This document shows, piece after piece, positions 3,416 to 60,744 of a stretch of 64,000 nt of DNA. The notes below the pieces were generated by a model, which was given only the letters and a program-made list of their open reading frames with translations, did not search any database and was not told the DNA's origin. How positions within the stretch are numbered: position 1 is the first letter of the stretch; every line of letters begins with the position of its first letter. The DNA lies in contig CP064970.1 in assembly GCA_016699305.1 (NCBI GenBank), positions 157,419-221,418 of the forward strand, given 5' to 3'. The position numbers and the translations under genes are program-made. This stretch comes from Alphaproteobacteria bacterium (GTDB lineage: Bacteria; Pseudomonadota; Alphaproteobacteria; GCA-016699305).

Positions 3416-3811
3416 ATGAAAAATTCATCCATCATCGTCTTAGGTTTAGCTTTGGCCTGTTCTGTGGCTACGTCTGCCATGGCAGCGCAGGATCGCTTGA
3501 GTGCCGAGCGCGGCTCATTGCAGCGTCAATGGGATAGAATACAGCCTCAATCTCAGGTGCTCCACGCTGAGCAGGATGATGTTGCAGTCGGGGGTGCCAC
3601 GTCTCTGGGCGCCGGGCGTACGTCCATAGGCAGAAGCGGGACGCCGCTGGCTGCGGGAGGGAGTCCGCTTGGAATGCGGGGCAGTCCTCTGGGTACGGCG
3701 CAATCTAATCTGGGTTATGGTGGTTCTCGGGTGCAAAATCCAGGCGGCGTGCTTAGTTCGCAGACAGCACCGCTCAGCAGTTATCAAAACGGCCTACAGA
3801 TTGCTCGCTAA
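3416..3811 (+). CDS. Small secreted Gly/Ser/Pro-rich protein (hypothetical)
   Basis: Signal peptide MKNSSIIVLGLALACSVATSAMA. The rest is low-complexity with a reiterated G-(S/T)-P-L-(A/G) motif. Confidence 0.5.
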   Translation: MKNSSIIVLGLALACSVATSAMAAQDRLSAERGSLQRQWDRIQPQSQVLHAEQDDVAVGGATSLGAGRTSIGRSGTPLAAGGSPLGMRGSPLGTAQSNLGYGGSRVQNPGGVLSSQTAPLSSYQNGLQIAR

Positions 3812-4009
3812 TGCTGTGAGACGCTCGCTCTCGTTCATGACCTTGTAGGCCCCGCAGTATTTCCGGTTTGTAAGACGTATTTTCGGGGCTATGCTGCTGT
3901 TCTTCCGCGCACACTACGTCTTGCGTTTGATGGTTTTGGCTGGATGAACGCGGTCTGCAATGCAGTTTCGGTCGGCCTGATATCTGCATTCCGCATTTTG
4001 CCACAGCGC

Positions 4010-5437: not shown

Positions 5438-5443
5438 GGCGGC

Positions 5444-10700: not shown

Positions 10701-13001
10701 ATTTCCCTCAGTCCCATAGGATGAAACCGTGATGCGATTGTCACCTTTCATAGAATAGACCACACCATTCGCCAAACGTAAATTATCTATATTTGTGATG
10801 CGTCTATCATTTATGGGAATAGTGGAAAATTCCACATACTGATTTTCTTTTAGAGCTATTTCTCCTAAATTAGCTACATGAATCTTTAATGCATAACTAT
10901 CAGAATATGAGGCATGATAATGATCAGTATATTCAAAATTTAAATTAGATAGAGTCACGCCAGTCGGCATAACTATCGTATCATTACTGTTATAAAAATA
11001 GGGTGTGTTATTGACACGATATGTTGAATTATCATCATAGCGATCATAACCACTTGTATAAATATACGTATCATCCCCGCTTCCACCATAAACATCATCA
11101 TCGCCATCTCCACCTTTAAAAGTATTATTTCCAGAGATGCCTAGAATATCGTAAGAACCTACGTCTCTTAGAACATCATTTCCGGCGCCGCCATCCAGTA
11201 TATCGTTGCCTACGTCTCCATATAATTCATCTCTCCCCTCACCGCCGTATAACGTGTCATTACCTTCACCCCCATATAATGTATCGCTTCCCGTCCCGCC
11301 GTATAATGTATCTTTGCCTAAACTTCCTGCCATCCAATCATCGTCTTCATCGCCATAAATAACATCATTGGCAGATCCCCCAATGATATGGTCATATCCT
11401 GTATTGCCATGAAGCGTGGCATTTACCATCAGGCCGGATATACTGATAAGGTCATTCCCGCCCATGCCATTGACGCTGACATTTTGCGTCCATGCACCCG
11501 ATGACGAGTATATCGTGTCATTATAATTGGTGCCGTAAGAGATGGGGACGTACATATTGGTGTACACGCCGCCGGCATCTGTCCCATACCCATAGGTATG
11601 CTGCACAGGGGGAGGCGCAGGCTGATTCATGTGAATCAGATATGTGCCGCCTGCCGCGCTGGCCGTAGGCGTAATGGTAAAATCCGTAAAAGCCCATCCC
11701 CCGGAAGACGGATAGATCCGAAAGCCAGGGTCCGATGAACCGCGCAGCACCACCAAAGCGCCGTCAAGGTCGTCGTCCAGCTCGCTGGGCACGACATAAA
11801 TCATCTTGGTTGTCGTGTCGAAAATATAGGCGCGGTTTTTATTGGGCAGGAAAGGCAAAGGGGTGTCCTGCGCGCCGATGGCGATGGCCTGGATCGGCAC
11901 GCGGATCATGCTGCCCACGGCCACAGAACAAACTCCCGCGTCCCAGTAAACGCCATCATCCTCGGTCACGCGATCATTCAGCCGCCCTAACAGATCGGCG
12001 CTATATCTCACACTGGCGGCGATAGAGGCCAGGGTTTCTCCCGGCTGCACCAGATGAAACCCCGTGCCCGGCACATTCACCGCGTCCCGCGCGCTGGCCA
12101 GCAGATTGGCGCGAATGGCTGTTAAGTCCGTCACCGCCGTACTGCCCGCCGGAAATGTTTTGATATGATTGGCGATATTCGCGGCCTCCTGCTTCAACGC
12201 CAAAGCCACAAACACCCCCGCCAGCGGATTGGCGGTAAAGTTGATGCTGGTTGCGTTATCGTCAGTTTCCACAGCTGTCACGCCCAGCGCTGCCGCCAGG
12301 TCACGGAGGCGGCGGCTTTCCAGGCCCTGTTTATAAACGCCCTCGGCTTTATTATTAAAGAACAGCACATCGGCCAGGAATGCGCCGATATTGCCTTGCT
12401 GAATATATTTTCCCTGCAAATCCCCATAAACCCCGTTATACTTTTCGCTGATCAACAACGCATGCAGGCCGTTATTCGCCAATGTGTGGCCCTCATCACC
12501 GGCGTTCAGCTTCGGATCCGTGATCTTACTGATCAATTCAGGCTCGTATCGGCGCTTCATCGCGGCGTTCAGCAAGGCCAGGCCTTGAGCCTGCGTTAGG
12601 CCCTTGGGTGGCTGGTCCGTGACCGTCCCTGCATAATCATTCTTGAAAGCGGTATTGAGTGCCGCCAATGTCTTTTCGTCCCCAGACTTAATATAACTGA
12701 CCAGCAATTCGCGCGTACTATACATTGTGCCGCCGACATCATTTGTCTTAGCATCACTGATGGCAATCCCCGCCGCCGTGAAATCGGCAATAATCCCCGC
12801 ACCCGTCTGCTTGCTGATGTCATAGCCATAGCCGATAGTGTAGTCCAGATTCCCCGGTTTCCCATACTTTCCTGCTGCGGGAAGGTTACTTCCTCCCAAA
12901 TAAAGAGGCCTGTTCTCTCCCTCCTGGAGCATCTTGTTACGCACGGCCAGATAGGCGGCGTTATCAGCATAGTTTGGAAAAAGAACGGCGAATTTCGACA
13001 T
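7758..13001 (-). CDS. Giant RTX (GGxGxD nonapeptide) calcium-binding T1SS substrate with an N-terminal lysozyme-like domain and a LysM motif
   Basis: The ATG at 13001 (MSKFAVLF...) has a GGGAG SD about 9 nt upstream, so the track's earlier start at 13112 is unlikely. There are dozens of GGxGNDxL/GDDxLYG repeats. The C-terminus (VLSFLSGANSDQIWFRHVGNNLEVSLIGTADKVTVSNWY...VENLVSAMAGF) is typical of RTX secretion regions. N-terminal blocks are QEGENRPLY...DYTIGYGYD, GLTQAQGLALLNAAMKRRYEPEL and LHALLISEKYNGV...GNIGAFLADVLFF. The LysM-like block is FHLVQPGETLASIAASVRYSADLLGRLNDRV...MIRVP. Confidence 0.9.
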   Translation of the reverse strand: MSKFAVLFPNYADNAAYLAVRNKMLQEGENRPLYLGGSNLPAAGKYGKPGNLDYTIGYGYDISKQTGAGIIADFTAAGIAISDAKTNDVGGTMYSTRELLVSYIKSGDEKTLAALNTAFKNDYAGTVTDQPPKGLTQAQGLALLNAAMKRRYEPELISKITDPKLNAGDEGHTLANNGLHALLISEKYNGVYGDLQGKYIQQGNIGAFLADVLFFNNKAEGVYKQGLESRRLRDLAAALGVTAVETDDNATSINFTANPLAGVFVALALKQEAANIANHIKTFPAGSTAVTDLTAIRANLLASARDAVNVPGTGFHLVQPGETLASIAASVRYSADLLGRLNDRVTEDDGVYWDAGVCSVAVGSMIRVPIQAIAIGAQDTPLPFLPNKNRAYIFDTTTKMIYVVPSELDDDLDGALVVLRGSSDPGFRIYPSSGGWAFTDFTITPTASAAGGTYLIHMNQPAPPPVQHTYGYGTDAGGVYTNMYVPISYGTNYNDTIYSSSGAWTQNVSVNGMGGNDLISISGLMVNATLHGNTGYDHIIGGSANDVIYGDEDDDWMAGSLGKDTLYGGTGSDTLYGGEGNDTLYGGEGRDELYGDVGNDILDGGAGNDVLRDVGSYDILGISGNNTFKGGDGDDDVYGGSGDDTYIYTSGYDRYDDNSTYRVNNTPYFYNSNDTIVMPTGVTLSNLNFEYTDHYHASYSDSYALKIHVANLGEIALKENQYVEFSTIPINDRRITNIDNLRLANGVVYSMKGDNRITVSSYGTEGNDSIFSYGHDFTWTSPTFKMALYGYGGDDSLYGGMSDDKLDGGIGTDVLEGGVGNDIYVASSGYDRIYEEGNDLQDVLLAPAGITAAQVSYYHDGNQNLAIVIAGLDLITVMGQFYHAVSNRLDYIKLSNGQMISLAGLSMKTFGTDWDDNITGIVGAATDDVIDAGEGNDSVLGGAGNDKILGGDGDDTLNGEDGADQLNGDAGNDWIFGGVGNDKAWGGDGDDRLFGEDGDDQLYGNAGDDMISGDNGNDQLYGNAGDDMISGDNGNDQLFGDAGDDNLEGKAGNDKAWGGDGNDSISGGDGDDQLNGEAGNDGISGGNGNDTCWGSDGNDGVSGGEGNDNAWGGDGDDKLYGQDGDDQLNGDAGLDLIQGGTGNDKAWGGLGDDKLYGQDGDDQLNGDAGVDLIQGGTGNDKAWGGDGDDTLSGEDGADQLNGDAGLDLIQGGTGNDKAWGGTGDDKLYGEDGDDQLNGDAGVDLIQGGIGNDSAWGGDGDDTLYGEDGDDQLNGDAGVDLIQGGTGNDKAWGGLGDDKLYGQDGDDQLNGDAGVDLIQGGTGNDKAWGGDGDDTLYGEDGADQLNGDAGNDAIRGGAGLDHIWGGAGNDRIYGEGDADALYGGAGDDQIQGNDGNDQLYGEAGSDVLYGGLGDDKYVFAAGYGHDVLDDASGGGAGTDTLLIQGLADTDALRFSVTGATNDVLIKLNAADDVLLKYQYSAYRPIDWLQFDDGSYAGLYAYDSWVWGGNYGTNITLGTATTNTAADIYWGDAEAETIRTYGGNDQIFGNGGNDKLVGGEGDDMLAGGSGNDEMWAENGNDRLFGGTGADVLRGGAGNDIISGGAGNDIMVGNADNDQLTGGSGNDTYNFAAGDGSDILTENDATTGNVDVLSFLSGANSDQIWFRHVGNNLEVSLIGTADKVTVSNWYSGKAYHVEQIKSSNAKTLLDSQVENLVSAMAGFTPPVMGQTTLPGNYQAALASVIAANWA
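8955..9660. repeat. About six near-identical tandem 108-nt (36-aa) repeats inside the RTX gene
   Basis: The unit LNGDAG(V/L)DLIQGGTGNDKAWGG(D/L/T)GDD(K/T)LYG(Q/E)DG(D/A)DQ recurs. Nucleotide copies are nearly identical (ggataaggtccaccccggcatcgccgttta...). Confidence 0.85.
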
Positions 13002-13026
13002 GTTGGTTACTCCCGACTTGTGTGGA

Positions 13027-14065
13027 TCAGTGGTGGCCTGGTGCGAATTTGATTTTATGCGTGATGCTGGATTCGATGTAACACAAGTCATCACCGGGTG
13101 GTCGTGCCGCATCGGCCACGACCATCAGGTCATGCGGGGTAGTGCTCATCAATATAAGGTAATATTTGCCGTGAATATTCGCAAAATGGGCAAGACTCGG
13201 CCCCCGATCAAAATTACTCCATGGCATTTCATCCTTCTGCAATTCAGCAGAAATCTTAGGAAATACCAGCTTACCTTGATACCCCAAGAGACTCCTTATA
13301 CCATTGACGGCAACCCTTACCGATTTTTCCATCATTTACCTCTTCATATGGCAGGTATGATTTGTAATAAGACCAGTCTTCCATTTTCAGTTTATCTGCA
13401 GGAATATCCCACTCCAAAAGCATGAATGGTGGCTGGATTACAGAGCGATACTTATCCGACGGATTCGTATGGATCGTCACCAACCGATCCACGCCGTCAT
13501 TCTTATAGGGCAGGATTTGCCAGTATTCCAAAGGTGCATCACCAATTGCAAAGCGACTGCCGTTATCGCCAGATGTCCCGCCTTGAATAAAATTCCACTG
13601 GGTGAAGATGGGATCGCTGAACAGCGGGTTTTGGGAACGATAGAAATCGTGATGCCCCCAGCGGAGGTTTTCGATCTTATCCGGTCGCGGCATCGGATGC
13701 GTGACTCGCCGGATGGCTTCCTTAGGATCCATACGCAGCGTGTCGTTCAGCGTCTTCACGATCACCTTGCACACCGGATCGCCATCATAGACCAGCTTAT
13801 AGGTGCGGCGTGGCCGCAGCCCCCAGCCGCCCAGGCAGTCGGGCGCGTAGCAGCCCAGTTTGTCGCAGGCCTGTGCTGGCACGGTGCTTCTTGCTCGCCC
13901 GCACGCGCCACCCCATGAGACTTTGGGCACGCCTTCTTCAGCATCGGCCTGCGCCGCACCGCTGGGCGGCGTTTGCGCATACACCGCGCTTGGCATCATG
14001 CCCATCAAGGCCGATCCCAAAAGAAAGACGGAGAGGACAGAGCGCGAAGCGGAAAAGGTCATCAA
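13027..14065 (-). pseudogene. Copy B1 of the signal-peptide protein upstream of the RTX gene; disrupted by a +1 frameshift (or a sequencing error)
   Basis: ORFs 13271-14065 and 13027-13335 together reproduce the 345-aa protein encoded at 14523-15560. There is an extra base at about 13312 (gacggcaaccc against gacggcaccc in copy 2). Confidence 0.8.
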
Positions 14066-48485: not shown

Positions 48486-48662
48486 ATGACGAATGAGAAA
48501 GTTTCACGAACTGCCCAAACACCGGCCAAAACCGCCCAAGCTCAACGACAAGCTAAGTTGGCCTCTGCCTTGCGTTCCAATCTGCATAAGCGTAAGGCTC
48601 AATCGGCCATCCAGGCCTCTGGCGCGACCTTGTCCAAGCTTGACGCGCCCCGGGAAAAGTGA
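48486..48662 (+). CDS. Small basic protein (58 aa), hypothetical
   Basis: MTNEKVSRTAQTPAKTAQAQRQAKLASALRSNLHKRKAQSA... This frame looks more protein-like than the overlapping 70-aa track ORF. It falls below the track's length cutoff. Confidence 0.35.
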   Translation: MTNEKVSRTAQTPAKTAQAQRQAKLASALRSNLHKRKAQSAIQASGATLSKLDAPREK

Positions 48663-48701
48663 GCAAATCCCAAACGAATTGACCGCGTACACGGGGCGAA
48701 A

Positions 48702-49313
48702 ATGAGACTTTCCGATGTCGATATAAAACGACTCATGGAATCGGGTGAGGTTGTGGTCACACCCAGGCCCGGGGATAACTATCTAGGCTCGGTGTCGTTG
48801 GACTTGCAGCTGGGATCGCATTTCCGAGTCTTCGTGCCGGGCCGCGCGTCCGGCGTCGATCTGATGCCTTTGGACGGGCGTAAGCCGACCGACGAGGTGG
48901 CGGATCTGATGGACGATGTCCATATCACCGCCAATGACATTTTCTATTTGCATCCGGGCGATTTTGCCTTGGGCGTCACTTTGCAGCGTGTGAAATTGCC
49001 CACGAATATCGTGGGGCGTTTGGACGGTCGCAGCAGTTTGGCGCGGTTGGGGCTGATGGTTCATGCGACGGCGCACACCATCGATCCCGGTTGGGACGGC
49101 AATATCGTGTTGGAATTCTTTAATTGCGGTCGTCTGCCTTTGGGATTGCGCCCTGGCATGCGGATTTGCGCCCTCAGTTTCGAAGAGCTGAAAACCGCCA
49201 CCTCCAAGCCTTATGTCTCGCGCGAGGACGCCAAATATCGGCAACAGGAATTGCCCTTGGCCAGCCGCATCGGCATGGACGAGGCCTGTAAGAAGCAATC
49301 GGAGGCCGCATGA
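48702..49313 (+). CDS. dcd: dCTP deaminase (trimeric dUTPase-fold family)
   Basis: LSDVDIKRLMESGEVVVTP, SVSLDLQLG, GRSSLARLGLMVHATAHTIDPGWDGNIVLEF. Confidence 0.9.
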   Translation: MRLSDVDIKRLMESGEVVVTPRPGDNYLGSVSLDLQLGSHFRVFVPGRASGVDLMPLDGRKPTDEVADLMDDVHITANDIFYLHPGDFALGVTLQRVKLPTNIVGRLDGRSSLARLGLMVHATAHTIDPGWDGNIVLEFFNCGRLPLGLRPGMRICALSFEELKTATSKPYVSREDAKYRQQELPLASRIGMDEACKKQSEAA

Positions 49314-50827
49314 GCGCGCCTTTATCGTTTGAGCCGCTTTACTACAAAGAACGCCTGAATCTTATTAATCCCACAGGCGATGTCGGCGTCGCCACCTTGT
49401 GGACGCCTGTGAACACCGCCGTGGACTATATGAAGAATCTGGGCATTGATCTGGGGCCTGAAACATCGCGCATTGCCGTAGTCGCCAATTTATACGGCGA
49501 TGGCTTGGCCCAAATGATTCGCAATCTGCTGTGGAATCCGCAAATCCGCCATCTGCTGATATTCGGCCAGCCCTTGACCGAGGCGGGGGCCGAGTTAGAG
49601 AATTTGCTGACCCTGGGCGCGGAGCCGGTCGAGGATATGGGGCAAAAACGCTTGTTGATTCGTGGCACCGATCGCAAGCTGGATTCCCATTTCGATCCCA
49701 GCCTGCTGCAGGGATATTATAAGATCAAGCGTTACGGTAAGCCCTCTTTGCCGGAAACCAAGCAAGGCGTGGGCACGTTCTTTAGCGACTTACCGCCTCC
49801 GGTTCCCGCCGCGCGTGATCGTATCGAGGCCCCCTTGCCGCAATTCAAGCCTAATTTCTTTCCATCCGAAGCGCGCAGCCATACCATCACGCGCCGTCGT
49901 CCCTTGGATGCTTGGGAAGAAGTGGTATGCCGCATCATGCGCTTTGGCGTGCCTTCGGTGGCGGGTGTCACCAAGCAACGCTTGGAGCTGCAAAACTTGA
50001 AGGTCGTCATCACCGAGCCTGTCGAAGACCGCGACGAGGATTTGCGGCCCTATGGATATTCGCGCGAGAAATTCGCCCGCTATCAGCAAGAATTCTTGTG
50101 CGGCGATGTGCCCGAGGATGTGCAGTACACCTATGGCAGCCGTATGCGCGGGGGGTGGCCCGGTCTAGATGGACGTACTGATGATGCCGTGACATTCATT
50201 GCAAACAAACTGGCCGAATCTCCCTCCGAGCGCAGCGCTTTTATCTCTATCTGGCATACCCCTGAAGATTTATTCGCTCCCGAGGAACGCAGCCGTCCTT
50301 GTTTGGCCAGTCTGTTCTTTCGTGTGTTCCAGGGGCATCTGACTCTGAACGCGACTTTCCGACTGCATAATGTGATGAGCGCGTGGCTGATGAACGTCTA
50401 TGGTCTGATTGCCTTGCAGCGCGAGGTGGCTGAGAAAGCGGGTGGATTGCCCATCGGTCCCATCACCGTGGTCAGCCAATCCATTTCCATTGATCCCGAC
50501 TCCCAAGACCGCTTTGCCGTGGCGCAACAGATACTGGCCAATAAGATCGATGATCTGGAACTTGACCGCGAAACCGGCAAACGTATCCTGCGCGAAGATC
50601 CCAACGGATATTTTACCTTTACGACGGACAACGAGACGAGCGAGATCGTCGTGGATCTCAAAATGGGCGGCGAGACGCTGCAACGCTATCGCGGGAAGAC
50701 GGCGGAGTCGGTGGAGAATCAAATATCCCGCGATAACGCCATTTCAGATATCGGCCATGCGCTGTATGTCGGGCGGCAATTGGCGATCATGGAACAGAGG
50801 CTGAAAAAAGGGCAGGCTGAATCGTGA
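49310..50827 (+). CDS. Three-domain fusion: MtrA-like N-domain, thymidylate-synthase-like core, DUF4346-like C-domain
   Basis: The start overlaps the dcd stop (ATGA). The N-domain has VGVATLWT and NLYGDGLAQMIRNLLWNPQIRHLLIFG (compare MtrA [24 protein letters not shown]). The core RPCLASLFFRVFQGHLTLNATFRLHNVMSAWLMNVYGL aligns with ThyA PCHAFFQFYV...[20 protein letters not shown], conserving Cys, Arg and the base-specifying Asn. The C-terminal DPNGYFTF...GHALYVGRQLAIMEQ is DUF4346-like. Confidence 0.75.
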   Translation: MSAPLSFEPLYYKERLNLINPTGDVGVATLWTPVNTAVDYMKNLGIDLGPETSRIAVVANLYGDGLAQMIRNLLWNPQIRHLLIFGQPLTEAGAELENLLTLGAEPVEDMGQKRLLIRGTDRKLDSHFDPSLLQGYYKIKRYGKPSLPETKQGVGTFFSDLPPPVPAARDRIEAPLPQFKPNFFPSEARSHTITRRRPLDAWEEVVCRIMRFGVPSVAGVTKQRLELQNLKVVITEPVEDRDEDLRPYGYSREKFARYQQEFLCGDVPEDVQYTYGSRMRGGWPGLDGRTDDAVTFIANKLAESPSERSAFISIWHTPEDLFAPEERSRPCLASLFFRVFQGHLTLNATFRLHNVMSAWLMNVYGLIALQREVAEKAGGLPIGPITVVSQSISIDPDSQDRFAVAQQILANKIDDLELDRETGKRILREDPNGYFTFTTDNETSEIVVDLKMGGETLQRYRGKTAESVENQISRDNAISDIGHALYVGRQLAIMEQRLKKGQAES

Positions 50828-51525
50828 CCACCCCGCCTATGATCTTCTTTGATATCGGCATGACGCTGATGCAAGGGCCTATTTCTGCCGCGCCTTCTAA
50901 TCCTTTGGCCGAGAAGCTAGGTTTGAGCGCTGCTGCCCAAAAAGACCTGCGTCATCAGATGATGGTGACTCCGTTACTATCTTACGAGGCTCTGGCGCAA
51001 TTTCTGGCCGATCGTTATGTGGTGCCCTTGCCCGCCGCCTTGGAAGCTTCCGAGCATGTTTGGAAATCTCAAGCGGGGGATGATGTCCAGCCTATACCCG
51101 GCGCGAGGGAATTGTTGCAGGACTTTAGGAATGCCGGGATGCGCGTGGGGTTCATCTCGACGATCTGGTTTCCTTATGCCCAAAGTTTTGATCGACTGTT
51201 TGGTGATTTGGCTGAAAGCGAATACCGCTTTATGTCCTATCTGCTGGGGCGTGAAAAGCCGGATCCCAGTATTTTTCAAGACGCCGCACGCGCGGCGGGA
51301 TGTGAGCCTTCGTCATGCCTAATGATTGGCGATTCCTATGACAGCGATATCCGACCGGCCATCAATTTAGGCTGGAAGACGATTTGGCTGTTGCATCGGG
51401 CCGATAAAGAAGCCGCCTTTGTCAATGCGGTGTCAGCAGGAACTGCACCCAAACCAAGCCTTACCATCGATTCGATCACTAAGCTTGACGTGAAACGGTG
51501 CCTTGATATCTTGTCGCTATCCTAA
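50824..51525 (+). CDS. HAD-superfamily hydrolase (variant motif I D-I-G-M-T)
   Basis: The GTG start overlaps the upstream stop (GTGA). Motif I FFDIGMTL, motif II ISTIW, motif III GREKPDP, motif IV GDSYDSD. Confidence 0.7.
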   Translation: MTTPPMIFFDIGMTLMQGPISAAPSNPLAEKLGLSAAAQKDLRHQMMVTPLLSYEALAQFLADRYVVPLPAALEASEHVWKSQAGDDVQPIPGARELLQDFRNAGMRVGFISTIWFPYAQSFDRLFGDLAESEYRFMSYLLGREKPDPSIFQDAARAAGCEPSSCLMIGDSYDSDIRPAINLGWKTIWLLHRADKEAAFVNAVSAGTAPKPSLTIDSITKLDVKRCLDILSLS

Positions 51526-51536
51526 AGGAGACGACC

Positions 51537-52160
51537 ATGAAATTGCTGCGCTGGGAGATGATGTCTGCGGAAGAAACGCTGGACCGTTTGGCCCAGACTC
51601 GTTTGCGCGGACATGGACAGAAGCTGATCTACGAAAAGGCGCGGCTTTCATTGATCCAGCAGGTCGATACGGATCGCCTGGTTCCTGCTCAGCGTTATCT
51701 GTGGAAGCGGGATTTGGACAATGCCATGGCCATGCAACGCCTGTTCGCGCAACAGGGCTTAGACGTGTTTGCCTTGGAAGGCGCCGTCATGTTCTGGATC
51801 GAACGCGACGGCGAAGAGGAAGGCCCCATTCCCATGACGCCGCCCATCGTGGAAGAGTCGATTGAGGCAGACGGCCAGAAAATCTGGCTGATCAATGACG
51901 GCATGCACCGCATCGCCGCCGCGCGTTCCTTGGGCCAAAAGATCAATGTGGTCTTGGCCGAGAACGTCCCCACCGAATACCCCTATTACGCCTTCCCGGC
52001 TCCGGGTGGCTGGCAGGATGTGCAGACCTATGATGTGCGTCCCGAGGGCGCGACGAAAAAGCTTTATCGCTTCCCCGAGACCTATAAAGACCTCTTCCGC
52101 GATTTTAACGATGTCTTTCCCGGCATGCAAAAAGACCGCCGTCAGGCCGAGGCGGCGTAA
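51537..52160 (+). CDS. ParB/sulfiredoxin-fold domain protein
   Basis: AAAGGAG SD. WLINDGMHRIAAARSLG matches the DGxHR core of the ParB N-terminal domain. No HTH or DNA-binding region is recognisable. Confidence 0.6.
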   Translation: MKLLRWEMMSAEETLDRLAQTRLRGHGQKLIYEKARLSLIQQVDTDRLVPAQRYLWKRDLDNAMAMQRLFAQQGLDVFALEGAVMFWIERDGEEEGPIPMTPPIVEESIEADGQKIWLINDGMHRIAAARSLGQKINVVLAENVPTEYPYYAFPAPGGWQDVQTYDVRPEGATKKLYRFPETYKDLFRDFNDVFPGMQKDRRQAEAA

Positions 52161-54635: not shown

Positions 54636-56957
54636 TCAGCCCGATGTGGTGACTTCGACGCGGTCCGCGTCCTTATCCGAATTGTCCACCGGCGTGCCCA
54701 GAGCGCGGATGTCCATACGCTCACTGGAAATGCCGGATTTCAACAGGAAGGCTCGAACCGCCAAGCCCCGTGACAATGCCAGGCGGCGCGCACCTTGAGT
54801 GGTGCCTCCCACAGGAGAAGAATAGGCGGTGATGGTCAAACGCGCGGACTGGTTGGCTTCCATCGAACGCAACAGGACGCGCAAGGAATCTTCCCCGTTT
54901 GCCCCAAGATTGTCGGACCCCGGCGTGAAGGATAAACGCACACGCTGCATGGGTTTTTCCGCCATGCTGGTGCTATCCGTGCTTTTTGCCGGTGCCAGCG
55001 GCGTTTCAGGCTTGACCGTTGGCACTGTAGCAGGCGCAGGAGCGCTAGGCGCGATCGCGGGTGGTTTTGGTTGCGGTGGAGCCACCGGCTTAGCCTGAGG
55101 CACAGTCGGTTGAATATTTGGCATAACGCTGTTTTGAGGGCTGGCTGGGCTATATGGCACGGGTGATGCGCCGCTCTTGTTTAATATCATGCGCACAGGC
55201 GGGATGGGCTTGGCCAGGTCTCGCACAGGAGGTGGCGGCAGACTGGGATTGGGCGCGGCCAACATCTTGTCCTGATCGGGAATGTTGGCCTCAGGCGCGG
55301 CTGTCTTGGGCAGACGAGGTATCCGCAATTTTTGTCCATTTGGCTCGGGTGCGGCAGCTGTGGCCGCAGTCGGTGATTCATCAGCCTTAGTAGCCGGTTC
55401 TTCCTGTGCCAATTGCGGTTGAGCATCAGGTTGTGTGGACGGCAAGGGGGCATCAGCAACGACCTGAGACGCCGGCGGTGGTGTTGCGGGATTTGAACGG
55501 TCTGCCTGTTGTTGGTTGGGTTTAGGATCATTCGCGGGCTTCTCCGCCGCAGATTCCTTGACGGCTGCGGGGGCAGTCTCTTTAGACACAGGTAAAGTGG
55601 GGGCGGCGCGCATAGCAGGTTCGGTCGAAGTGGGAACGGGCTCCGCCGCAGATCCCTCGCCACGCGTGAACAGTTTGCGCGAATGCGGCGTGGGTACCGG
55701 CTCATCCGCTGTTTGCGGTGACAAAACCTGCGGCTCGTTCATCAAAGCTGTGGCTAAAGGCGCAACAGGCAAATCCAACCCGCGTCCGATCTGGGCAGGA
55801 CGATCTGCCGTATCCGTCTTGCTCGGCAGTTCAGGAACAGCAGGAGCGACAGCCGGTGTCGCTTCCTTGGGTGTAACTGGGGTCGAGGCCACCACAGGTG
55901 GCGGCGCAGGCGGTGTCACAATGCTCTGCTGGGCTGGTGCTGACTGTATTGCTGGGTCAGATGGCTTGGCATCAGCCGTTTTGGCTGTGGGTAAGGGTGC
56001 CGCATTCTCAAGCTGAGGTTCCAAGGGCTGGATCGGCTTAGGCGATTCTGGTTCTAGGGGCTTGTTGGGCACAGCGGATGCCACAGGATTCAAAGATGGA
56101 GCGACTGCGGGTGTAAGTGTAGGTTCCGCCACAACGGAATCGGACTTAGTTGCCGCCATGGCTTTATGAAAGGCCTGATCCAAACTGCGCGAGTCGAGCT
56201 TGGTAGAAGGCTGTACAGACGAAGAATCTTGTCTATGCCGGGCAAGAACCAAGGGATCTCGGGAATCAATCGGCTGGGCGATGGGCGTGGCGGCAGGTCG
56301 ATCAACCCCCATAGGTACCTGGGCTGCAGCTTCAGGTGCCGTAGGAATAGCGATGCTGGACTGCGATGTCGGACGCGTGACGACTAAGCTGCGCGTCTCG
56401 GGGGATCGGTAGCCGCTGGGCATAGATATAGATGATGAAGGCACGGCAGCAGGCGCTGCGGGGTTCCTTAGCAAATTGACGGGGGACGGAATACCCTGAT
56501 TGGAGGCCTTTTTAGCCTTAGAATTATGTCCCAACATGGCCTCGGGTGACAGCTCGTTGGCTCCCGGCCATTCACGAGGAAGTATCCTGCGTTCCGGGTT
56601 ATATGTCTCCACACTAGGAGCTGTGTTGGCCGTTGTGTTCTTGGACTGAATGACCACCTGACCAGATTGAGCATGAGCTACCCATGGTGACAGGGAAAAC
56701 AGCGCCAGTGCGGCTAAACCGCAACGCCCAAAACGAACGCGCCGTAACGCATCCTTTCCGGACAGGCCGAAACAACGAACTATAATCTGGCCGTAAGACA
56801 ACGCACTCTCCCTGGAACGACGGCTTTCCCGTTGCCTGCGAACGATGTGGCATCTATGCCAAAGATCGATTCGAGGCGATACGCATATTGCCGCAAGAAT
56901 GCCCGGAAAACAATGCTCGACGGGGATTTTTCTGTTTGGGCGTCTCATGGAACGCAA
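54636..56957 (-). CDS. Large Pro/Ala-rich envelope protein with a C-terminal OmpA-like peptidoglycan-binding domain
   Basis: The C-terminus RLTITAYSSPVGGTTQGARRLALSRGLAVRAFLLKSGISSERMDIRALG is OmpA-like. A signal-like segment GLAALALFSLSPWVAHA lies ~70 codons into the ORF, so the true start is uncertain. Confidence 0.7.
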   Translation of the reverse strand: MRSMRRPNRKIPVEHCFPGILAAICVSPRIDLWHRCHIVRRQRESRRSRESALSYGQIIVRCFGLSGKDALRRVRFGRCGLAALALFSLSPWVAHAQSGQVVIQSKNTTANTAPSVETYNPERRILPREWPGANELSPEAMLGHNSKAKKASNQGIPSPVNLLRNPAAPAAVPSSSISMPSGYRSPETRSLVVTRPTSQSSIAIPTAPEAAAQVPMGVDRPAATPIAQPIDSRDPLVLARHRQDSSSVQPSTKLDSRSLDQAFHKAMAATKSDSVVAEPTLTPAVAPSLNPVASAVPNKPLEPESPKPIQPLEPQLENAAPLPTAKTADAKPSDPAIQSAPAQQSIVTPPAPPPVVASTPVTPKEATPAVAPAVPELPSKTDTADRPAQIGRGLDLPVAPLATALMNEPQVLSPQTADEPVPTPHSRKLFTRGEGSAAEPVPTSTEPAMRAAPTLPVSKETAPAAVKESAAEKPANDPKPNQQQADRSNPATPPPASQVVADAPLPSTQPDAQPQLAQEEPATKADESPTAATAAAPEPNGQKLRIPRLPKTAAPEANIPDQDKMLAAPNPSLPPPPVRDLAKPIPPVRMILNKSGASPVPYSPASPQNSVMPNIQPTVPQAKPVAPPQPKPPAIAPSAPAPATVPTVKPETPLAPAKSTDSTSMAEKPMQRVRLSFTPGSDNLGANGEDSLRVLLRSMEANQSARLTITAYSSPVGGTTQGARRLALSRGLAVRAFLLKSGISSERMDIRALGTPVDNSDKDADRVEVTTSG

Positions 56958-57142: not shown

Positions 57143-57218
57143 AGGAGTGTAGCTCAATTGGTAGAGCACCGGTCTCCAAAACCGGGGGTTGGGGGTTCGA
57201 TCCCCTCCACTCCTGCCA
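57143..57218 (+). tRNA. tRNA-Trp (anticodon CCA)
   Basis: Folded by hand as AGGAGTG/CACTCCT acceptor, GCTC...GAGC D-arm, CCGGT-CTCCAAA-ACCGG anticodon arm and GGGGG-TTCGATC-CCCTC T-arm. The CCA is encoded. It sits in the classic position upstream of secE-nusG. Confidence 0.93.
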
Positions 57219-57290
57219 GTGCCATGGTTATCCAGTATGGGATTCCCCGCACGGGCGAGTCGTTGATCGAAGGACAAAGGTTGAACGCTG

Positions 57291-57485
57291 ATGATTAAAA
57301 ACGTAGTGCAGTTCAGTCAGGAAGTGCGAAGGGAGATCGGCAAGGTCACTTGGCCGACTCGTCGTGAAACCTGGACGACCACTCTATTGGTCTTCATCAT
57401 GACGGTGCTGGCCGCGCTGTTTTTTTTGTTTGTCGATCAGGTCTTGGCCTGGGTCGTCAAGCATGTCCTAAGCCTGGGTTCGTAG
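57291..57485 (+). CDS. secE: Preprotein translocase subunit SecE
   Basis: 64 aa. VRREIGKVTWPTRRE followed by a single TM segment. Confidence 0.9.
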   Translation: MIKNVVQFSQEVRREIGKVTWPTRRETWTTTLLVFIMTVLAALFFLFVDQVLAWVVKHVLSLGS

Positions 57486-57489
57486 GAGG

Positions 57490-58071
57490 ATGCAAACCAT
57501 GAGTGAGACTCCAGCGGCGAAGGCCGCTTCCCCCCGGGCGAGCGGGCCGCGTTGGTACGTGATTCACGCCTATTCCGGCTTTGAGAAGAAGGTCGCGGCG
57601 GAAATCCGCAAACAGGCCGAGACCAAGGCCTTGAACGATATGATCGTCGAGGTCGTGGTGCCTTCCGAAGAGGTGGTCGAGATTCGGCGTGGCGCTAAGA
57701 TCAAGTCGGAACGTAAGTTCTATCCCGGCTATGTGCTGGTCAAGATGGAGCTGACGGACGAGACATGGAATCTGGTGCGCAATGTGCCGCGCGTGTCGGG
57801 CTTTCTGGGCGGCGGCAATCGTCCTTCGCCGATCAGCGAGGCCGAGGCTCAGCGCATCTTGAACCAGATGGAAGAGGGCGTTTCGAATCCACGGCCTTCG
57901 GTGACCTTTGAGATTGGCGAGCAGGTTCGCGTATGCGATGGACCGTTCGCTTCCTTTAATGGCACTGTCGAAGAAGTCGATGAGTCGAAATCGCGCTTGA
58001 AGGTTTCGGTGTCAATCTTTGGTCGCTCCACGCCCGTGGATCTGGAATACGGCCAGGTCGAAAAGGTCTGA
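57490..58071 (+). CDS. nusG: Transcription termination/antitermination factor NusG
   Basis: NGN domain RWYVIHAYSGFEKKV. KOW motif GEQVRVCDGPFASFNGTVEEVD...IFGRSTPVDLEYGQVEK. Confidence 0.93.
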   Translation: MQTMSETPAAKAASPRASGPRWYVIHAYSGFEKKVAAEIRKQAETKALNDMIVEVVVPSEEVVEIRRGAKIKSERKFYPGYVLVKMELTDETWNLVRNVPRVSGFLGGGNRPSPISEAEAQRILNQMEEGVSNPRPSVTFEIGEQVRVCDGPFASFNGTVEEVDESKSRLKVSVSIFGRSTPVDLEYGQVEKV

Positions 58072-58628
58072 TGCCCAAGATGGGGGTGCCCATGCGCCTG
58101 ACGGTCTTGTCTTTTGTCCTAGCCTTGGGCTGCCTGGCCCTGGTTGGCTGTGGCTTTCGTCCCGTTTATGGGGGACTTGGCGGGCCTGTGTCGGGTGGGG
58201 AAAGGCTGAACGAGGTTTGGATCGGCACCATCCCGGACCGCAACGGCCAGATGTTGCGCAACATGCTGACTGACAGAATTCACGCCGAGGGCGTCCCGTC
58301 AAAGCCGCGCTATCGTCTGGATGTAACTTTGACAAGCGGCGAAGGCGATCTGGGGTTGCGTAAAGACGCCACCGCCACAGGGCGTCAGCTAACGATCCAC
58401 GCATCTTGCGTGTTGACCGATGCGATCGAGGGCCGCCAGGTGGCACGTTGGGCGGATCGTAGTGTTGTGCGACACAATATCCTTATGGCACCCTATGCAA
58501 CGCAGGTTTCGCGCGACGATGCATGGCAACGTGGGTTAACTGACCTAAGTGACAGCATCATCCGCAGTCTGACGGTTTACCTGCAGCCTGCCCCCAAAGC
58601 AGGGCAGAAAGCGCCGACACAGCCTTGA
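58071..58628 (+). CDS. Lipoprotein, LptE-like
   Basis: Lipobox LALVGCGFRPVYGG, the alphaproteobacterial LptE-type N-terminus. The start overlaps the nusG stop; an alternative start is at 58092. Confidence 0.55.
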   Translation: MPKMGVPMRLTVLSFVLALGCLALVGCGFRPVYGGLGGPVSGGERLNEVWIGTIPDRNGQMLRNMLTDRIHAEGVPSKPRYRLDVTLTSGEGDLGLRKDATATGRQLTIHASCVLTDAIEGRQVARWADRSVVRHNILMAPYATQVSRDDAWQRGLTDLSDSIIRSLTVYLQPAPKAGQKAPTQP

Positions 58629-58704
58629 TTTTGCGGGGCCACGTCCTACTTAGAAATAAGCCCATGTGTAAGATATGGGCCTGCCCCTTGATCTGGAGAG
58701 CTTT

Positions 58705-59307
58705 ATGTCCAAGCATGCCTTGACCACGGCAGATATCCTGTCAATGGACGTTTATGAACGGGAGCGTGCCGAACGTAAACGCGCCATCCAGCCGATGAAG
58801 CGGTTGCGCCGTGTGGAGGTGGGGCCATGCGCCGCATTCTACTTCGAGAACTACGACACAATGTGGCTGCAAGTCCATGAAATGCTTTTCATTGAGAGGG
58901 GTGGAAACGAACAGCTGGCCGATGAATTGGCCGCCTATAACCCGCTCATTCCCAAAGGCAACGAGCTGGTTGCTACCTTAATGTTCGAGATCGAAAACGC
59001 CACAAAGCGGCATGAGCTTTTGGCCAAATTGGGTGGTGTCGAAGAGACGGTCAGTTTCACGGTAAATGGCTTGTCTGTTCGCGCAGTCCCCGAGGACGAT
59101 GTGGATCGCACCACGGCGGATGGCAAAGCCTCATCTGTCCAGTTCCTGCATTTTGTGTTCGATAAGGAACAAATCGCGGCATTTTGCCAGCCAGGGCAAA
59201 GCATCATTCTGACCATTAGCCACCCGGCTTATGCGCATAGTGCCGTTATTCCAGAAGCAACGCGCACGGAACTGGCCAGGGATTTTGATCTTAACTTGTT
59301 AGCTTAG
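58705..59307 (+). CDS. DUF3501-like protein
   Basis: The pattern KRLRRVEVGPCAAFYFENYDTMWLQVHEMLFIE...YNPLIPKGNELVATLMFEI...SSVQFLHF matches the family. Confidence 0.65.
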   Translation: MSKHALTTADILSMDVYERERAERKRAIQPMKRLRRVEVGPCAAFYFENYDTMWLQVHEMLFIERGGNEQLADELAAYNPLIPKGNELVATLMFEIENATKRHELLAKLGGVEETVSFTVNGLSVRAVPEDDVDRTTADGKASSVQFLHFVFDKEQIAAFCQPGQSIILTISHPAYAHSAVIPEATRTELARDFDLNLLA

Positions 59308-59403: not shown

Positions 59404-60744
59404 ATGGCAAATTTCAACTTTGACAGACCGACACGTCTCAGATTTATGCGCCTGGATGACAAGGCCACGTCCCAATTACGCGAGACATGGCCCAAATTGG
59501 AACCGAAAATCCAGGGCATTCTTGAGGAGTTTTATCGTCATCTGATGGGGTTCGACGCCTTGTCCAAGATGCTGGGCGGACCTGACAATGTGAAGCGTTT
59601 GATCGGCGCGCAAAGCCAGCATTGGCGCGCTTTGTTCTCTGCCCAGTTCGACGATGCCTTTATGGATCGCGTCACGCGCATCGGCCAGGCTCATCAGCGT
59701 ATCGGCCTAGAGCCGCGCTGGTATATTGGCGGCTATAGTCTGGTTTTGGAACGGTTGTTAGCGGCGCTTAGCGCGGTCGAATCCAACGAAGAACGACGCC
59801 GCGACATATCTGGGGCCATCACCCGCGCTGTGTTCCTGGATATGGACTTATCCATTTCCGTCTATCAGTTCGCCGAGATCGAGGCGCGCGAAAAGCGGTC
59901 GAGCAAGGTTGAAGAAATCCTAGGCAACTTTGATCACATCGTGGGCGGGATTATGCAAACCGTCGATCAAGCCGCTGATAAGGTCAGCGGCGCGACCCAG
60001 CAGGTATCCAGCCTGGCCAGCGAGACATCCTCACGTTCTTCGGAGGCGGCGCATTCGGCGCAGGAGGCCTCGGGGAATGTGCAGACCGTGGCGGCGGCGG
60101 CCGAAGAGCTGTCGGCCTCCATTCGTGAGATCAACAAGCAGGTAGCCGATTCCACGTCTTTGGCCACAACCTCGGTCGGCAAGACCCATGTCATTCAAAA
60201 TACGGTGCGTACCCTTAGCGACGCGGCGGCCAATATCGACAACATCATTGGCTTGATCCGCAGCATTGCCAGCCAGACCAACATGCTGGCGCTGAACGCT
60301 GCCATCGAGGCGGCACGGGCAGGGGCGGCGGGCAGTGGGTTCCAGGTGGTCGCCAATGAGGTCAAGACCTTGGCCAAACAGACGGCCAAGGAAACCGAAG
60401 CCATCGGCGCGGTGGTGGCATCCATGCAAAAAGCGACGTCGCAGGCGGTTACGGAAATCAGCGAGGTTTCTGGCGATATCAGCCAGATATCGGATATCAT
60501 CGCCTCGATCGCCTCGGCTGTGACCCAGCAAACGGCGGCGACGCAGGAAATAGCCCGGAACATTCAACAGGCCCTGGACCGCACACGCATGGTCAGCGAC
60601 GATGTGGACATTGTCAGCCACAACGCTTCGGACACACTGTCAGCCACGAATGAGACGCGCGAGTCCTTGCAGAATTTTCTGGATCAGTCTCGCAGTCTGC
60701 AAGACAGCATCCAGAAGTTCTTCGAGCAAATCCGCGCGGTTTAG
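59404..60744 (+). CDS. Globin-coupled (HemAT-like) methyl-accepting chemotaxis protein
   Basis: The N-terminal sensor-globin blocks are [15 protein letters not shown] and [22 protein letters not shown]. The C-terminal MCP signalling hairpin reads [37 protein letters not shown]. No TM segments. Confidence 0.85.

Follow-up and report, generated by a model that had tools for sequence, protein, structure and literature searches.

The described enzymes closest to the system analyzed here are thymidylate synthase ThyA (EC 2.1.1.45; PF00303), the methanogen-type thymidylate synthases, which are archaeal and single-domain, and the flavin-dependent 5-hydroxy-dCMP synthases of phages (RB69 gp48 and HY126 AfhB), which are viral, single-domain and O2-using. 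Three positions of the thymidylate synthase (TS) fold are informative. At the N177 position, Asn confers specificity for uracil over cytosine, and the phage 5-hydroxy-dCMP synthases have Asp there; an Asn at the Asp169 position is a reported signature of the same phage dCMP hydroxylases; and Leu143, which excludes water in ThyA, is replaced by Asp or Glu in phage hydroxymethylases and hydroxylases. A further relative is MtrA, the corrinoid-binding subunit of methyl-H4MPT:CoM methyltransferase, in which Gly57 and Asn64 contact the cobamide nucleotide tail and His84 is the cobalt ligand. ThyX and bifunctional DHFR-TS are comparable in possible functional logic alone (no separate DHFR, or a cofactor-handling domain in cis); neither ThyX nor DHFR is related in sequence or fold to the protein described below. 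We found no paper describing the gene module reported here.

The window, i.e. the whole 64,000-nucleotide stretch of DNA that was analyzed, contains four consecutive ORFs on the forward strand: dcd, encoding a dCTP deaminase (48702-49313); the gene for a 505-aa three-domain protein of the thymidylate synthase superfamily, here named TS3, which is the center of the module (49310-50827); a gene for a variant HAD-superfamily IA hydrolase (50824-51525; PF00702, PF13419 and PF13242); and a gene for a protein of the ParB/sulfiredoxin fold, ParB-CE (51537-52160; PF24392). The first-pass annotation had described these genes as translationally coupled, and the junctions were confirmed. An ATGA overlap at 49310-49313 joins dcd to TS3, with GGAGG located 6 nt 5' of the TS3 start, and a GTGA overlap at 50824-50827 joins TS3 to the HAD gene. 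The HAD stop codon (TAA, 51523-51525) is followed by an 11-nt gap before the ParB-CE ATG at 51537, with the sequence AAAGGAG at 51524-51530. Because ATG 50839 corresponds to the first residue of most HAD homologues, the HAD start may lie 11 nt 3' of the TS3 stop, in which case there would be no overlap. Position 48486, earlier given as the left edge of the operon, lies within a 239-nt intergenic region; dcd begins only at 48702. The domain assignments of all four proteins were also correct, as judged by TIGR02274 for Dcd, PF00303/PF14251 and the MtrA-like motif for TS3, the HAD families, and PF24392 together with Foldseek for ParB-CE.

Dcd scored 181.9 bits against TIGR02274 (cut-off 92.8) and was 51% identical to a manually entered sequence of E. 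coli Dcd. Its nearest PDB entry was 1xs1 (E 1.9e-55), compared with 1e-32 and 5e-13 for the bifunctional enzymes 2qxx and 1ogh. Judged from its sequence, the dcd of the window is an E. coli-like, monofunctional, dUTP-forming enzyme of the ordinary housekeeping type.

At least 346 homologues share the architecture of TS3, and relatives are present in 120 GTDB species representatives. TS3 gave a weak match to PF00303 and a clear match to PF14251, and its AF2 model (pLDDT 86) matched ThyA, MilA and AfhB in Foldseek at E values of about 1e-11. The N-terminal domain (residues 1-178; 49310-49843) is Rossmann-like, and its profile matched the MtrA structures 8q3v, 5laa and 9qtq via the motif G-x6-NLLxNPxIRxLxxxG, generalized as G-x6-N-L-[IL]-x-N-P-x-I-R-x-L-x3-G. 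Gly65 and Asn72 of TS3 are conserved and correspond to Gly57 and Asn64 of MtrA, whereas the position of the cobalt ligand His84 falls in a 2-residue deletion, and Glu54 of MtrA, the partner of His84, probably corresponds to Tyr62, a position beyond the reported alignment that was assigned by manual counting. Unlike MtrA, TS3 lacks a PF04208 match, a membrane anchor and associated Mtr genes. Its MtrA-like domain is essentially restricted to the TS3 architecture. The C-terminal PterinBD-DUF4346 domain (residues 417-505; 50558-50824; PF14251, 2.2e-14), for which no solved structure exists, is also C-terminal in long MtrA homologues (NF002128) and in DHPS-like proteins (TIGR00284). The first-pass annotation had suggested a different C1 carrier as one possibility. 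As His84 is absent, as the host taxa are mostly not known to use methanopterin, and as genes for serine hydroxymethyltransferase (SHMT) and FolD adjoin TS3 in three lineages, methanopterin or another exotic C1 carrier is less likely than folate.

The central TS core (residues 186-412; 49865-50545) aligned with ThyA with an hhalign probability of 98.8% and shares its fold and Pro-Cys nucleophile. The dUMP-activating residues Cys331, Arg308, Arg351, Asn362 and Tyr275 align with C146, R126, R166, N177 and Y94 of ThyA, and these five residues as well as H353, N354, Y273 and R338 were invariant in 81/81 TS3 sequences. Variants of about 800 aa carry a fused second TS core and DUF4346 domain; this second core lacks the Cys while keeping the equivalent of Arg308, as expected for a ThyA-type dimer in which the Arg acts in trans. 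From these sequences TS3 is probably dimeric like ThyA, with the Arg contributed by the partner subunit.

Several features nevertheless set TS3 apart from ThyA. The core is only about 225 aa long, and the alignment provided no equivalent of the W80/W83 helix or of the C-terminal folate clamp. In place of Asp169, TS3 invariably has Asn (Asn354); Leu or Phe occupies the His147 position, and Arg127 has no conserved counterpart. Moreover, the core is flanked by the Rossmann-like and DUF4346 domains and has a conserved ParB-fold partner. Neither the invariant Asn nor the missing classical folate clamp had been mentioned in the first-pass annotation. One explanation is that TS3 works catalytically like any folate-dependent ThyA-type enzyme, with release of dihydrofolate, and that the extra domains, ParB-CE and the HAD protein serve as regulatory or pool-balancing accessories, e.g. 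by adjusting dTMP synthesis to sensed dNTP levels or by running a substrate cycle between a nucleotidase and a kinase. The complete set of dUMP residues, the SHMT genes adjoining TS3 in several lineages and the DHFR gene beside it in Solirubrobacterales would fit this explanation, as would the facts that ParB-fold proteins are known NTP-gated switches and that the ParB-CE model matches ParB-CDP and KorB structures. However, with Asp169, W80, W83 and the C-terminus missing, folate binding cannot be ordinary, DHFR was seen near TS3 in Solirubrobacterales only, and TS3 scored far below the curated threshold of every TS equivalog model. We therefore consider this explanation improbable. The best-matching curated family was TIGR03283, the MJ0757/TysY type of methanogen TS, which likewise has a short core. 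Residues 196-394 of TS3 covered positions 6-193 of 201 of this model (E 2.3e-26) at 92.5 bits, well under the cut-off of 174.55. Thus TS3, being bacterial, three-domain and linked to ParB-CE and HAD, is not the ordinary methanogen-type enzyme that the earlier annotation had named as the reading that would weaken a novel pathway.

The phage 5-hydroxy-dCMP synthases resemble TS3 in having a short TS fold without the folate-binding C-terminus and an Asn at the Asp169 position, the R-S-Q-N of RB69 gp48 corresponding to R-x-H-N in TS3. Among solved structures, the best superpositions were with the dCMP hydroxylases 9iqu (TMt 0.82, rmsd 2.8 A) and 9iqc (TMt 0.76). The position three residues before the Cys, equivalent to Leu143 of ThyA, is G, S, D or A in TS3, although this loop is not confidently aligned. 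These similarities raise the possibility that the product of the module is not dTMP but a deoxyuridylate modified at C5, i.e. 5-hydroxymethyl-dUMP, 5-hydroxy-dUMP or a similar compound, paralleling phages with hydroxymethyl-uracil DNA. TS3 would then be the C5-modifying enzyme and ParB-CE a dedicated kinase for the modified nucleotide, while the HAD protein would clear a competing or toxic monophosphate or release the nucleoside, and Dcd or dCMP deaminase would supply dUMP. A conserved partner of the ATP-binding, phosphotransferase-type ParB/Srx fold suits a modified nucleotide, and both the coexistence of TS3 with canonical thyA-folA in Solirubrobacterales and the phage-like contig that carries a ParB-CE and TS3 pair point the same way. 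TS3 differs from the phage enzymes in its uracil-specifying Asn, its two extra domains and its cellular hosts. Against a 5-modified product, these hosts include strict anaerobes (Desulfobacterales, Syntrophobacterales and Desulfofundulus), which argues against O2-dependent hydroxylation as the general function of the family. In addition, no glycosyl-, amino- or methyltransferases or other tailoring enzymes were conserved beside the module, which has a housekeeping context with SHMT, dUTPase and dCMP deaminase in very small Patescibacteria genomes and is almost absent from the viruses searched. Among 2.9 million IMG/VR viral contigs, one was identified by TS3 patterns, with a divergent copy on L091 in addition, and 50,697 phage records contained no TS3. 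Modified thymine is not known from DNA of these bacteria. We regard a 5-modified product as the main alternative to dTMP, with a clearly lower probability than the explanation favored below.

ParB-CE matched PF24392 at 6.3e-33. A search retrieved 370 single-domain homologues of about 200-230 aa, and its AF2 model (pLDDT 92.6) matched Atu1540, sulfiredoxin-ATP, 1vk1, ParB-CDP and KorB structures. With its INDGMHR motif, ParB-CE shares the nucleotide-binding core and D-G-x-H-R motif of sulfiredoxin, SerK and the ParB CTPases. It differs from sulfiredoxin in having Met in place of the catalytic Cys and from ParB CTPases in having neither a helix-turn-helix nor dimerization domains, in agreement with the earlier observation that it lacks a DNA-binding region. 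An N-terminal beta region, a basic C-terminal tail and invariable linkage to TS3 and/or HAD are features of its own. The HAD protein has D-I-G-M-T as motif I, so that the Asp at +2 is absent. This absence, also noted previously, extends to the family: D-[IL]-G-x-T and motifs II-IV were retained in 38/38 HAD homologues adjoining TS3.

Gene order was examined at 57 fully flanked TS3 loci. ParB-CE adjoined TS3 in 42 of these and shared its strand in 51/52 cases; HAD adjoined TS3 in 28/57, and at one locus (L085) HAD and ParB-CE were paired even without TS3 nearby. By contrast, dcd adjoined TS3 in only 9/57 loci; Rhodospirillales and Magnetococcales carry it. The proposed operon therefore held up as a unit with respect to TS3 and ParB-CE, which form the conserved core, but not with respect to dcd, which is an occasional member. 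Co-oriented linkage of the module genes recurs in about ten bacterial phyla, so that their association exceeds chance. The neighbors depend on the lineage but do not vary freely, in every case being thymidylate-cycle genes: dcd, dCMP deaminase, dUTPase, SHMT or thyA-folA. In Saccharibacteria the locus comprises ParB-CE, dCMP deaminase, TS3, SHMT and dUTPase with FolD close by, between ribosomal-protein and ArgRS genes, and Paceibacterota and Zambryskibacteria have a similar context. The order in Desulfofundulus is SHMT, dCMP deaminase, HAD, ParB-CE and TS3, with the atp operon just downstream. In Solirubrobacterales, TS3-ParB-CE adjoins canonical thyA-folA, a position comparable to that of mycobacterial thyX close to thyA-dfrA. 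ThyX was not found in any locus scanned, nor was DHFR seen near TS3 outside Solirubrobacterales. These results bear out the earlier view that TS3-ParB-CE(-HAD) is a functional unit of pyrimidine deoxynucleotide metabolism.

The UniRef label of PF24392 proteins is 'ParB-like catalytic effector'. Since dCTP deaminases are known defense effectors, and since the module occurs patchily within genera (e.g. in Azospirillum isscasi), an anti-phage or conflict system that combines dCTP deamination with this 'catalytic effector' to act on deoxynucleotide pools was considered. We judge it very improbable. None of the four proteins had a PADLOC match, no plasmid copies were found, and no mobile-element or defense-island genes were seen around the module. 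The locus is chromosomal and of housekeeping type without a GC anomaly, Dcd belongs to the E. coli-like housekeeping class, and in Patescibacteria and Firmicutes the module forms part of core operons.

The explanation that we favor, with a probability of about 45%, is that the module is a distinct dUMP-to-dTMP system that requires a ParB-fold partner. In this reading the operon would encode a self-contained branch of thymidylate synthesis centered on a non-classical TS. Dcd would convert dCTP to dUTP, and Dut encoded elsewhere or the HAD protein would yield dUMP. A ThyA-like TS3 dimer would hold dUMP by Arg308' of the partner subunit, Arg351, Asn362 and Tyr275, all conserved, and, by analogy with ThyA, Cys331 would attack C6. 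A one-carbon unit would then be transferred to C5 to give dTMP, the most likely donor, from gene context, being SHMT-derived 5,10-methylene-tetrahydrofolate. The cofactor would be held differently than in ThyA, with the MtrA-like Rossmann and PterinBD-DUF4346 domains replacing W80, W83, the C-terminus and Asp169. The Asp-to-Asn change, as in flavin-using TS-fold enzymes, could leave room for another reductant, such that dihydrofolate would not be released. ParB-CE would be an obligatory nucleotide-triphosphate-dependent partner, its likeliest activities being phosphotransfer to or from the product or an intermediate, or NTP-gated activation of TS3. Lacking the general acid, the HAD variant would be expected to prefer substrates with good leaving groups, e.g. 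phosphoanhydrides such as dUTP or dUDP, and its probable role is to supply or trim the dUMP/dTMP pool. We infer these roles of ParB-CE and HAD from fold and motif logic alone.

Several observations count against a dTMP route. An ordinary dTMP synthase should need no dedicated ParB-fold partner, and a dedicated kinase is explained more naturally by a modified-nucleotide pathway. In Solirubrobacterales, the canonical thyA-folA genes indicate that TS3 does not simply act as the only TS. The Asn354 signature, the flavin enzymes as nearest solved structures and, within the uncertainty of the loop alignment, the polar or small residue at the Leu143 position also count against it. In support of a dTMP route are the invariant dUMP-activating residues with the uracil-specifying Asn, the signs of an Arg donated in trans, the thymidylate-cycle neighbors in independent lineages, the occurrence in strict anaerobes, the ordinary housekeeping Dcd that is translationally coupled to TS3 and the nature of the locus itself, chromosomal and devoid of GC anomaly, PADLOC match or plasmid copy. 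We conclude that the operon probably represents an undescribed route for making, or modifying, the DNA base thymine.

The operon consists of four plus-strand ORFs, all present as the first-pass annotation described them: dcd (48702-49313), the gene for the 505-aa thymidylate-synthase-like protein TS3 (49310-50827), the gene for a HAD-type protein (50824-51525) and the gene for the 207-aa ParB/sulfiredoxin-fold protein ParB-CE (51537-52160). The ATGA overlap reported between dcd and TS3 was found at 49310-49313, preceded 6 nt upstream by GGAGG, as was the 11-nt gap with AAAGGAG ahead of the ATG at 51537. The GTGA overlap at 50824-50827 is also in the sequence. In most homologues of the HAD protein the first residue is the one that the ATG at 50839 encodes, and the gene may therefore begin 11 nt past the TS3 stop codon with no overlap. 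The proposed operon start required correction, as 48486 falls inside the 239-nt intergenic region upstream of dcd. A search of this region against Rfam gave no match, so that no riboswitch or leader was detected, and no promoter signal above chance was present there; promoter and terminator scans gave counts no better than those of shuffled sequence.

The neighbours of the operon are housekeeping genes encoding HisRS, PrmC, ParC and a pseudouridine synthase, while an AstE/AspA-like gene, a GNAT gene, a LysR regulator, a tRNA and NusG lie on the downstream side. No GC anomaly was found at the locus. Within the 64-kb window we found no thyA, thyX, folA, tmk, dut or glyA; the rest of the genome comprises roughly 2 Mb. 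Several other features of the window were recorded. After the tRNA (57143-57215) and NusG (57490-58071), a 185-aa ORF without a Pfam match stands at a spot where one could look for a ribosomal protein gene, and is followed by a DUF3501 protein (57143-58628 and 58675-59307). A globin-coupled sensor, in which a protoglobin domain is joined to the signalling domain of a methyl-accepting chemotaxis protein, is encoded on the plus strand (59404-60744). Two large ORFs lie on the minus strand: one of 773 aa (54636-56957), most of which is very rich in Pro, Ala and Ser and whose last ~100 residues are OmpA-like by eye, and a very long one of 1784 aa (7758-13112).

Dcd is an orthodox dCTP deaminase, scoring 181.9 bits with TIGR02274 against a cut-off of 92.8. 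It was 51% identical to E. coli Dcd, and its closest PDB entry was 1xs1 (E 1.9e-55), compared to E values of 1e-32 and 5e-13 for bifunctional enzymes. These comparisons place Dcd nearest to the E. coli enzyme, a monofunctional type that forms dUTP.

The core of TS3 (residues ~186-412) aligned with ThyA in hhalign with a probability of 98.8%. The P330-C331 pair was invariant in 81 of 81 sequences and aligned with the Pro-Cys motif containing C146 of E. coli ThyA; R351 (=R166), R308 (=R126) and Tyr275 (=Y94) were invariant in the same set, as was R338, an additional Arg of TS3. The Asn that specifies uracil was said to be retained, and N362, aligned to ThyA N177, was indeed invariant in the 81 sequences. 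The position of ThyA R127 is occupied by H, K, G, R or S, and the counterpart of R21 is absent from the alignment. In contrast to the shared nucleophile Cys and Asn177, the folate site belongs to ThyA only: Asn354 replaces Asp169 in 81/81 sequences, and the W80/W83 region, the C-terminal clamp and the ThyA residues past ~240 are without counterpart in TS3. We conclude that, as judged from sequence, TS3 belongs to the dUMP-type enzymes of the TS fold, its nucleophile machinery intact and its cofactor site rebuilt.

Within the S-H-S-I-S motif, residue 390 of the TS3 protein in the window (50477-50479) is Gln, whereas His occurs there in 78 of 81 homologues; every other invariant residue is intact. 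This His is possibly equivalent to ThyA His207. In two metagenomic TS3 variants of ~800 aa, P0039 (from Abditibacteriota) and P0032, a single MtrA-like domain precedes a duplicated unit of TS core plus DUF4346. In the second core copy the catalytic Cys is replaced by Ser or Arg and the Arg308 equivalent is kept. This arrangement resembles a pseudo-dimer fused into one chain and having a single active site, and a Cys-less second copy retaining the Arg308 equivalent fits a ThyA-like TS3 dimer in which the Arg would be donated in trans.

Curated models set TS3 apart from known synthases. The match to PF00303 was marginal and partial (25.5 against 24.3), and scores were far below the cut-offs for TIGR03284 (12 against 108) and the NF0024xx models (~17 against 327-405). 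The best curated match was to the methanogen-type TS TIGR03283 (E 2e-26), at 92.5 bits versus a cut-off of 174.55. Whether the core might simply be an ordinary methanogen-type TS had been posed earlier; whereas that enzyme has a single domain, TS3 has three and falls below the equivalog score. It is improbable in our estimation that TS3 is an ordinary, dihydrofolate-releasing TS accompanied by regulatory accessories.

Among solved structures the best superpositions were obtained with the phage dCMP hydroxylases 9iqu (TMt 0.82) and 9iqc (0.76). A 2026 paper describes the Asp-to-Asn change as a signature of flavin-dependent phage 5-hydroxy-dCMP synthases, and AfhB and RB69 gp48 share with TS3 an Asn at the position of ThyA Asp169; the sequence R-S-Q-N in RB69 gp48 occurs at the site of R-x-H-N in TS3. 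However, RB69 gp48 has Asp at the N177 position, consistent with its cytosine substrate, whereas TS3 has the invariant Asn362 for uracil. The Asn354 signature, together with a polar or small residue at the ThyA Leu143 position and the need for a dedicated partner, favours the main rival to thymidylate synthesis, namely that the module leads to a 5-modified dUMP. We found no conserved tailoring enzymes to go with such a pathway, and the fact that strict anaerobes carry the family counts against it. For that reason O2-dependent hydroxylation by a bound flavin is also unlikely as the general function of TS3.

An AlphaFold model of TS3 (pLDDT 86) was confident for the individual domains but not for their relative placement (pTM 0.55). 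The N-terminal domain (residues ~1-178) is Rossmann-like, and its profile matched MtrA 8q3v at E 0.004-0.018 through the motif G-x6-NLLxNPxIRxLxxxG; MtrA structures 5laa and 9qtq gave weaker matches with the same motif, and no PF04208 match was found in TS3. A published paper assigns His84 of MtrA as the lower axial cobalt ligand, Glu54 as its hydrogen-bond partner, and Gly57 and Asn64 as residues that hold the nucleotide tail of the cobamide. Gly65 and Asn72 are the conserved TS3 counterparts of Gly57 and Asn64. His84, however, is lost in a 2-residue deletion of the TS3 profile, and Glu54 corresponds to the near-invariant Tyr62 (a position counted by hand, outside the reported alignment). Thus, the domain shares the motif and the Gly and Asn residues with MtrA, yet because His84 is deleted it would not be a His-on corrinoid binder. 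Corrinoid-dependent methyl transfer from methyl-cobalamin to dUMP, a mechanism prompted by the MtrA-like domain, was rejected for the same reason. The C-terminal domain is PterinBD-DUF4346, which also terminates long MtrA homologues and DHPS-like proteins; no solved structure of DUF4346 was found.

ParB-CE matched PF24392 at 6e-33 and carries the UniRef name 'ParB-like catalytic effector'. Its model (pLDDT 92.6) gave Foldseek matches to Atu1540, sulfiredoxin-ATP, 1vk1 and ParB-CDP, and in its INDGMHR sequence the D, G, H and R of the phosphate-binding motif D-G-x-H-R are invariant. A ParB/sulfiredoxin core lacking a DNA-binding region had been proposed, in agreement with the 207-aa single-domain model, which contains no helix-turn-helix. 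The catalytic Cys of sulfiredoxin is Met123 in ParB-CE, which therefore has neither the helix-turn-helix of ParB nor the Cys of sulfiredoxin.

The HAD protein scored above the cut-offs of PF00702, PF13419 and PF13242, and the solved structures nearest to it are those of generic phosphatases of subfamily IA. Motif I of HAD phosphatases is DxDxT. The missing second Asp noted by the first-pass annotation is a feature of the whole group, with D-[IL]-G-x-T in 39/39 aligned sequences (38 homologues and the protein from the window); the nucleophile Asp is retained and the general acid/base at Asp+2 is Gly. Motifs II-IV (ISNIW, KPD and GD(S/T)YxxD) are conserved.

At least 346 TS3 homologues with the same architecture were identified. 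In a search of 1.84 billion proteins, the N-domain profile matched 444 representatives with an E cut-off of 1e-3 and 190 with one of 1e-10, nearly all of ~460-545 aa, corresponding to ~190-440 clusters at 50% identity in ~10 phyla. The 120 relatives in GTDB species genomes belong to Rhodospirillales, Acidobacteriota (Bryobacterales, Terriglobia), several Patescibacteria classes, Magnetococcales, relatives of Thiomargarita and Beggiatoa, Solirubrobacterales and other Actinomycetota, Desulfobacterota and Bacillota. We counted adjacent genes at the 57 loci flanked by 3 kb or more on either side. ParB-CE adjoined TS3 at 42 of these loci, HAD at 28, both at 27 and dcd at 9. ParB-CE lay directly beside TS3 or separated from it by HAD, and the two genes shared a strand in 51 of 52 cases. 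ParB-CE is a conserved partner of TS3, and a HAD variant usually accompanies them. A HAD-ParB-CE pair also followed a RadA-like gene in the Magnetococcales MAG JADGCV010000001.1 (locus L085, 9299-10648), where TS3 was absent from the surrounding 10 kb and a dcd-like gene lay 8 kb upstream; as they pair away from TS3, these two genes form their own unit.

The gene order in Saccharibacteria was ParB-CE, dCMP deaminase, TS3, SHMT and dUTPase with FolD close by, and related Patescibacteria were similar. In Desulfofundulus the order was SHMT, dCMP deaminase, HAD, ParB-CE and TS3, upstream of the atp operon. These arrangements show that the genomic company of the module is the thymidylate cycle. A housekeeping setting within minimal genomes counts against a 5-modified dUMP product. 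In Solirubrobacterales, however, TS3-ParB-CE adjoins HIT-DHFR-ThyA, and TS3 alongside thyA-folA is what a 5-modified dUMP pathway could explain; overall, we consider that pathway unlikely. Mycobacterial thyX lies close to thyA-dfrA, a gene order that we take to resemble the TS3 position in Solirubrobacterales. At one such locus (L052, 8268-12802) the nucleotide-metabolism island beside TS3-ParB-CE, conserved in ~8 loci, encodes DHFR, a divergent ThyA of 302 aa, an HIT-family protein and a cytidylyltransferase-like protein. It also encodes a protein of 276 aa, whose C-terminal dCMP-deaminase domain follows an N-terminal half of no assigned family, and a 303-aa protein without a Pfam match.

A mobile element was rejected as an explanation, as searches of plasmids and phage records gave no matches to the module and it was nearly absent from IMG/VR, where one contig matched the TS3 patterns. 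Four IMG/VR contigs carried distant ParB-CE relatives, one of them also with a divergent TS3. On the latter, a phage-like contig with a Baseplate_J gene (L091, IMGVR_UViG_3300033066_001775), ParB-CE and the full-length TS3 (3421-4146 and 4937-6448) are separated by small PP-binding and cupin-like ORFs; this TS3 was 33% identical, and the otherwise invariant Asn354 is Arg. Two contigs of ~70 kb, L088 (5001-5606) and L089 (5001-5564), encode distant ParB-CE homologues (31-34% identity), with no TS3 in the 10 kb examined per contig. On L088 the gene for a large terminase with an intein lies ~1 kb downstream of the homologue, and a phosphoribosyltransferase gene is ~4 kb away from it. PADLOC gave no matches, and we regard a defence system as very improbable. 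Both this reading and that of a dihydrofolate-releasing TS are less likely than a dTMP system or a 5-modified dUMP pathway.

Our leading interpretation, to which we assign a probability of roughly 45%, is that the module constitutes a distinct system for converting dUMP to dTMP. Methylene-THF from SHMT would be the probable one-carbon donor, held by the new domains of TS3 instead of the ThyA clamp. Judging from its fold, ParB-CE may be an NTP-dependent phosphotransferase or activator. As Dcd is monofunctional, a dUTP-to-dUMP step would be needed; HAD could be a hydrolase fitted for phosphoanhydrides, and this step is possibly its role. Folate rather than methanopterin is favoured because SHMT and FolD adjoin TS3. 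A role in methanopterin biosynthesis or methylotroph C1 islands was rejected on the same grounds, and a literature search gave nothing relevant. Most of the host taxa are not known to use methanopterin. A more specific proposal, which we consider doubtful, is that TS3 and ParB-CE constitute a third, DHFR-independent and partner-dependent type of thymidylate synthase. Its ThyA-fold, Cys-nucleophile core would use a flavin or other redox cofactor at the Asn354 site, DUF4346 would present methylene-THF, and a nucleotide cofactor would occupy the MtrA-like Rossmann domain. Such an enzyme would make dTMP without dihydrofolate release, would require the NTP-dependent ParB/sulfiredoxin-fold partner, and could be the sole thymidylate synthase of lineages such as Patescibacteria, Magnetococcales and Bryobacterales.

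We found no published description of the module in the searchable literature (DUF4346, PterinBD, ParB-CE, third TS class); the domains themselves are already catalogued, as their Pfam names attest. Thymidylate synthesis is essential and a classic drug target, and to our knowledge only two classes of thymidylate synthase, ThyA and ThyX, are established. Whether the module makes dTMP or a 5-modified dUMP is directly testable, as it is present in cultured strains. If the product is a 5-modified dUMP, this would suggest that free-living bacteria contain an unrecognised modified base or nucleoside. If TS3 makes dTMP, it would be a third solution and would alter the inference of thymidylate and folate dependence from genomes, with the greatest consequence for candidate-phyla-radiation bacteria and other uncultured groups, and the ParB/sulfiredoxin fold would gain a new metabolic role.
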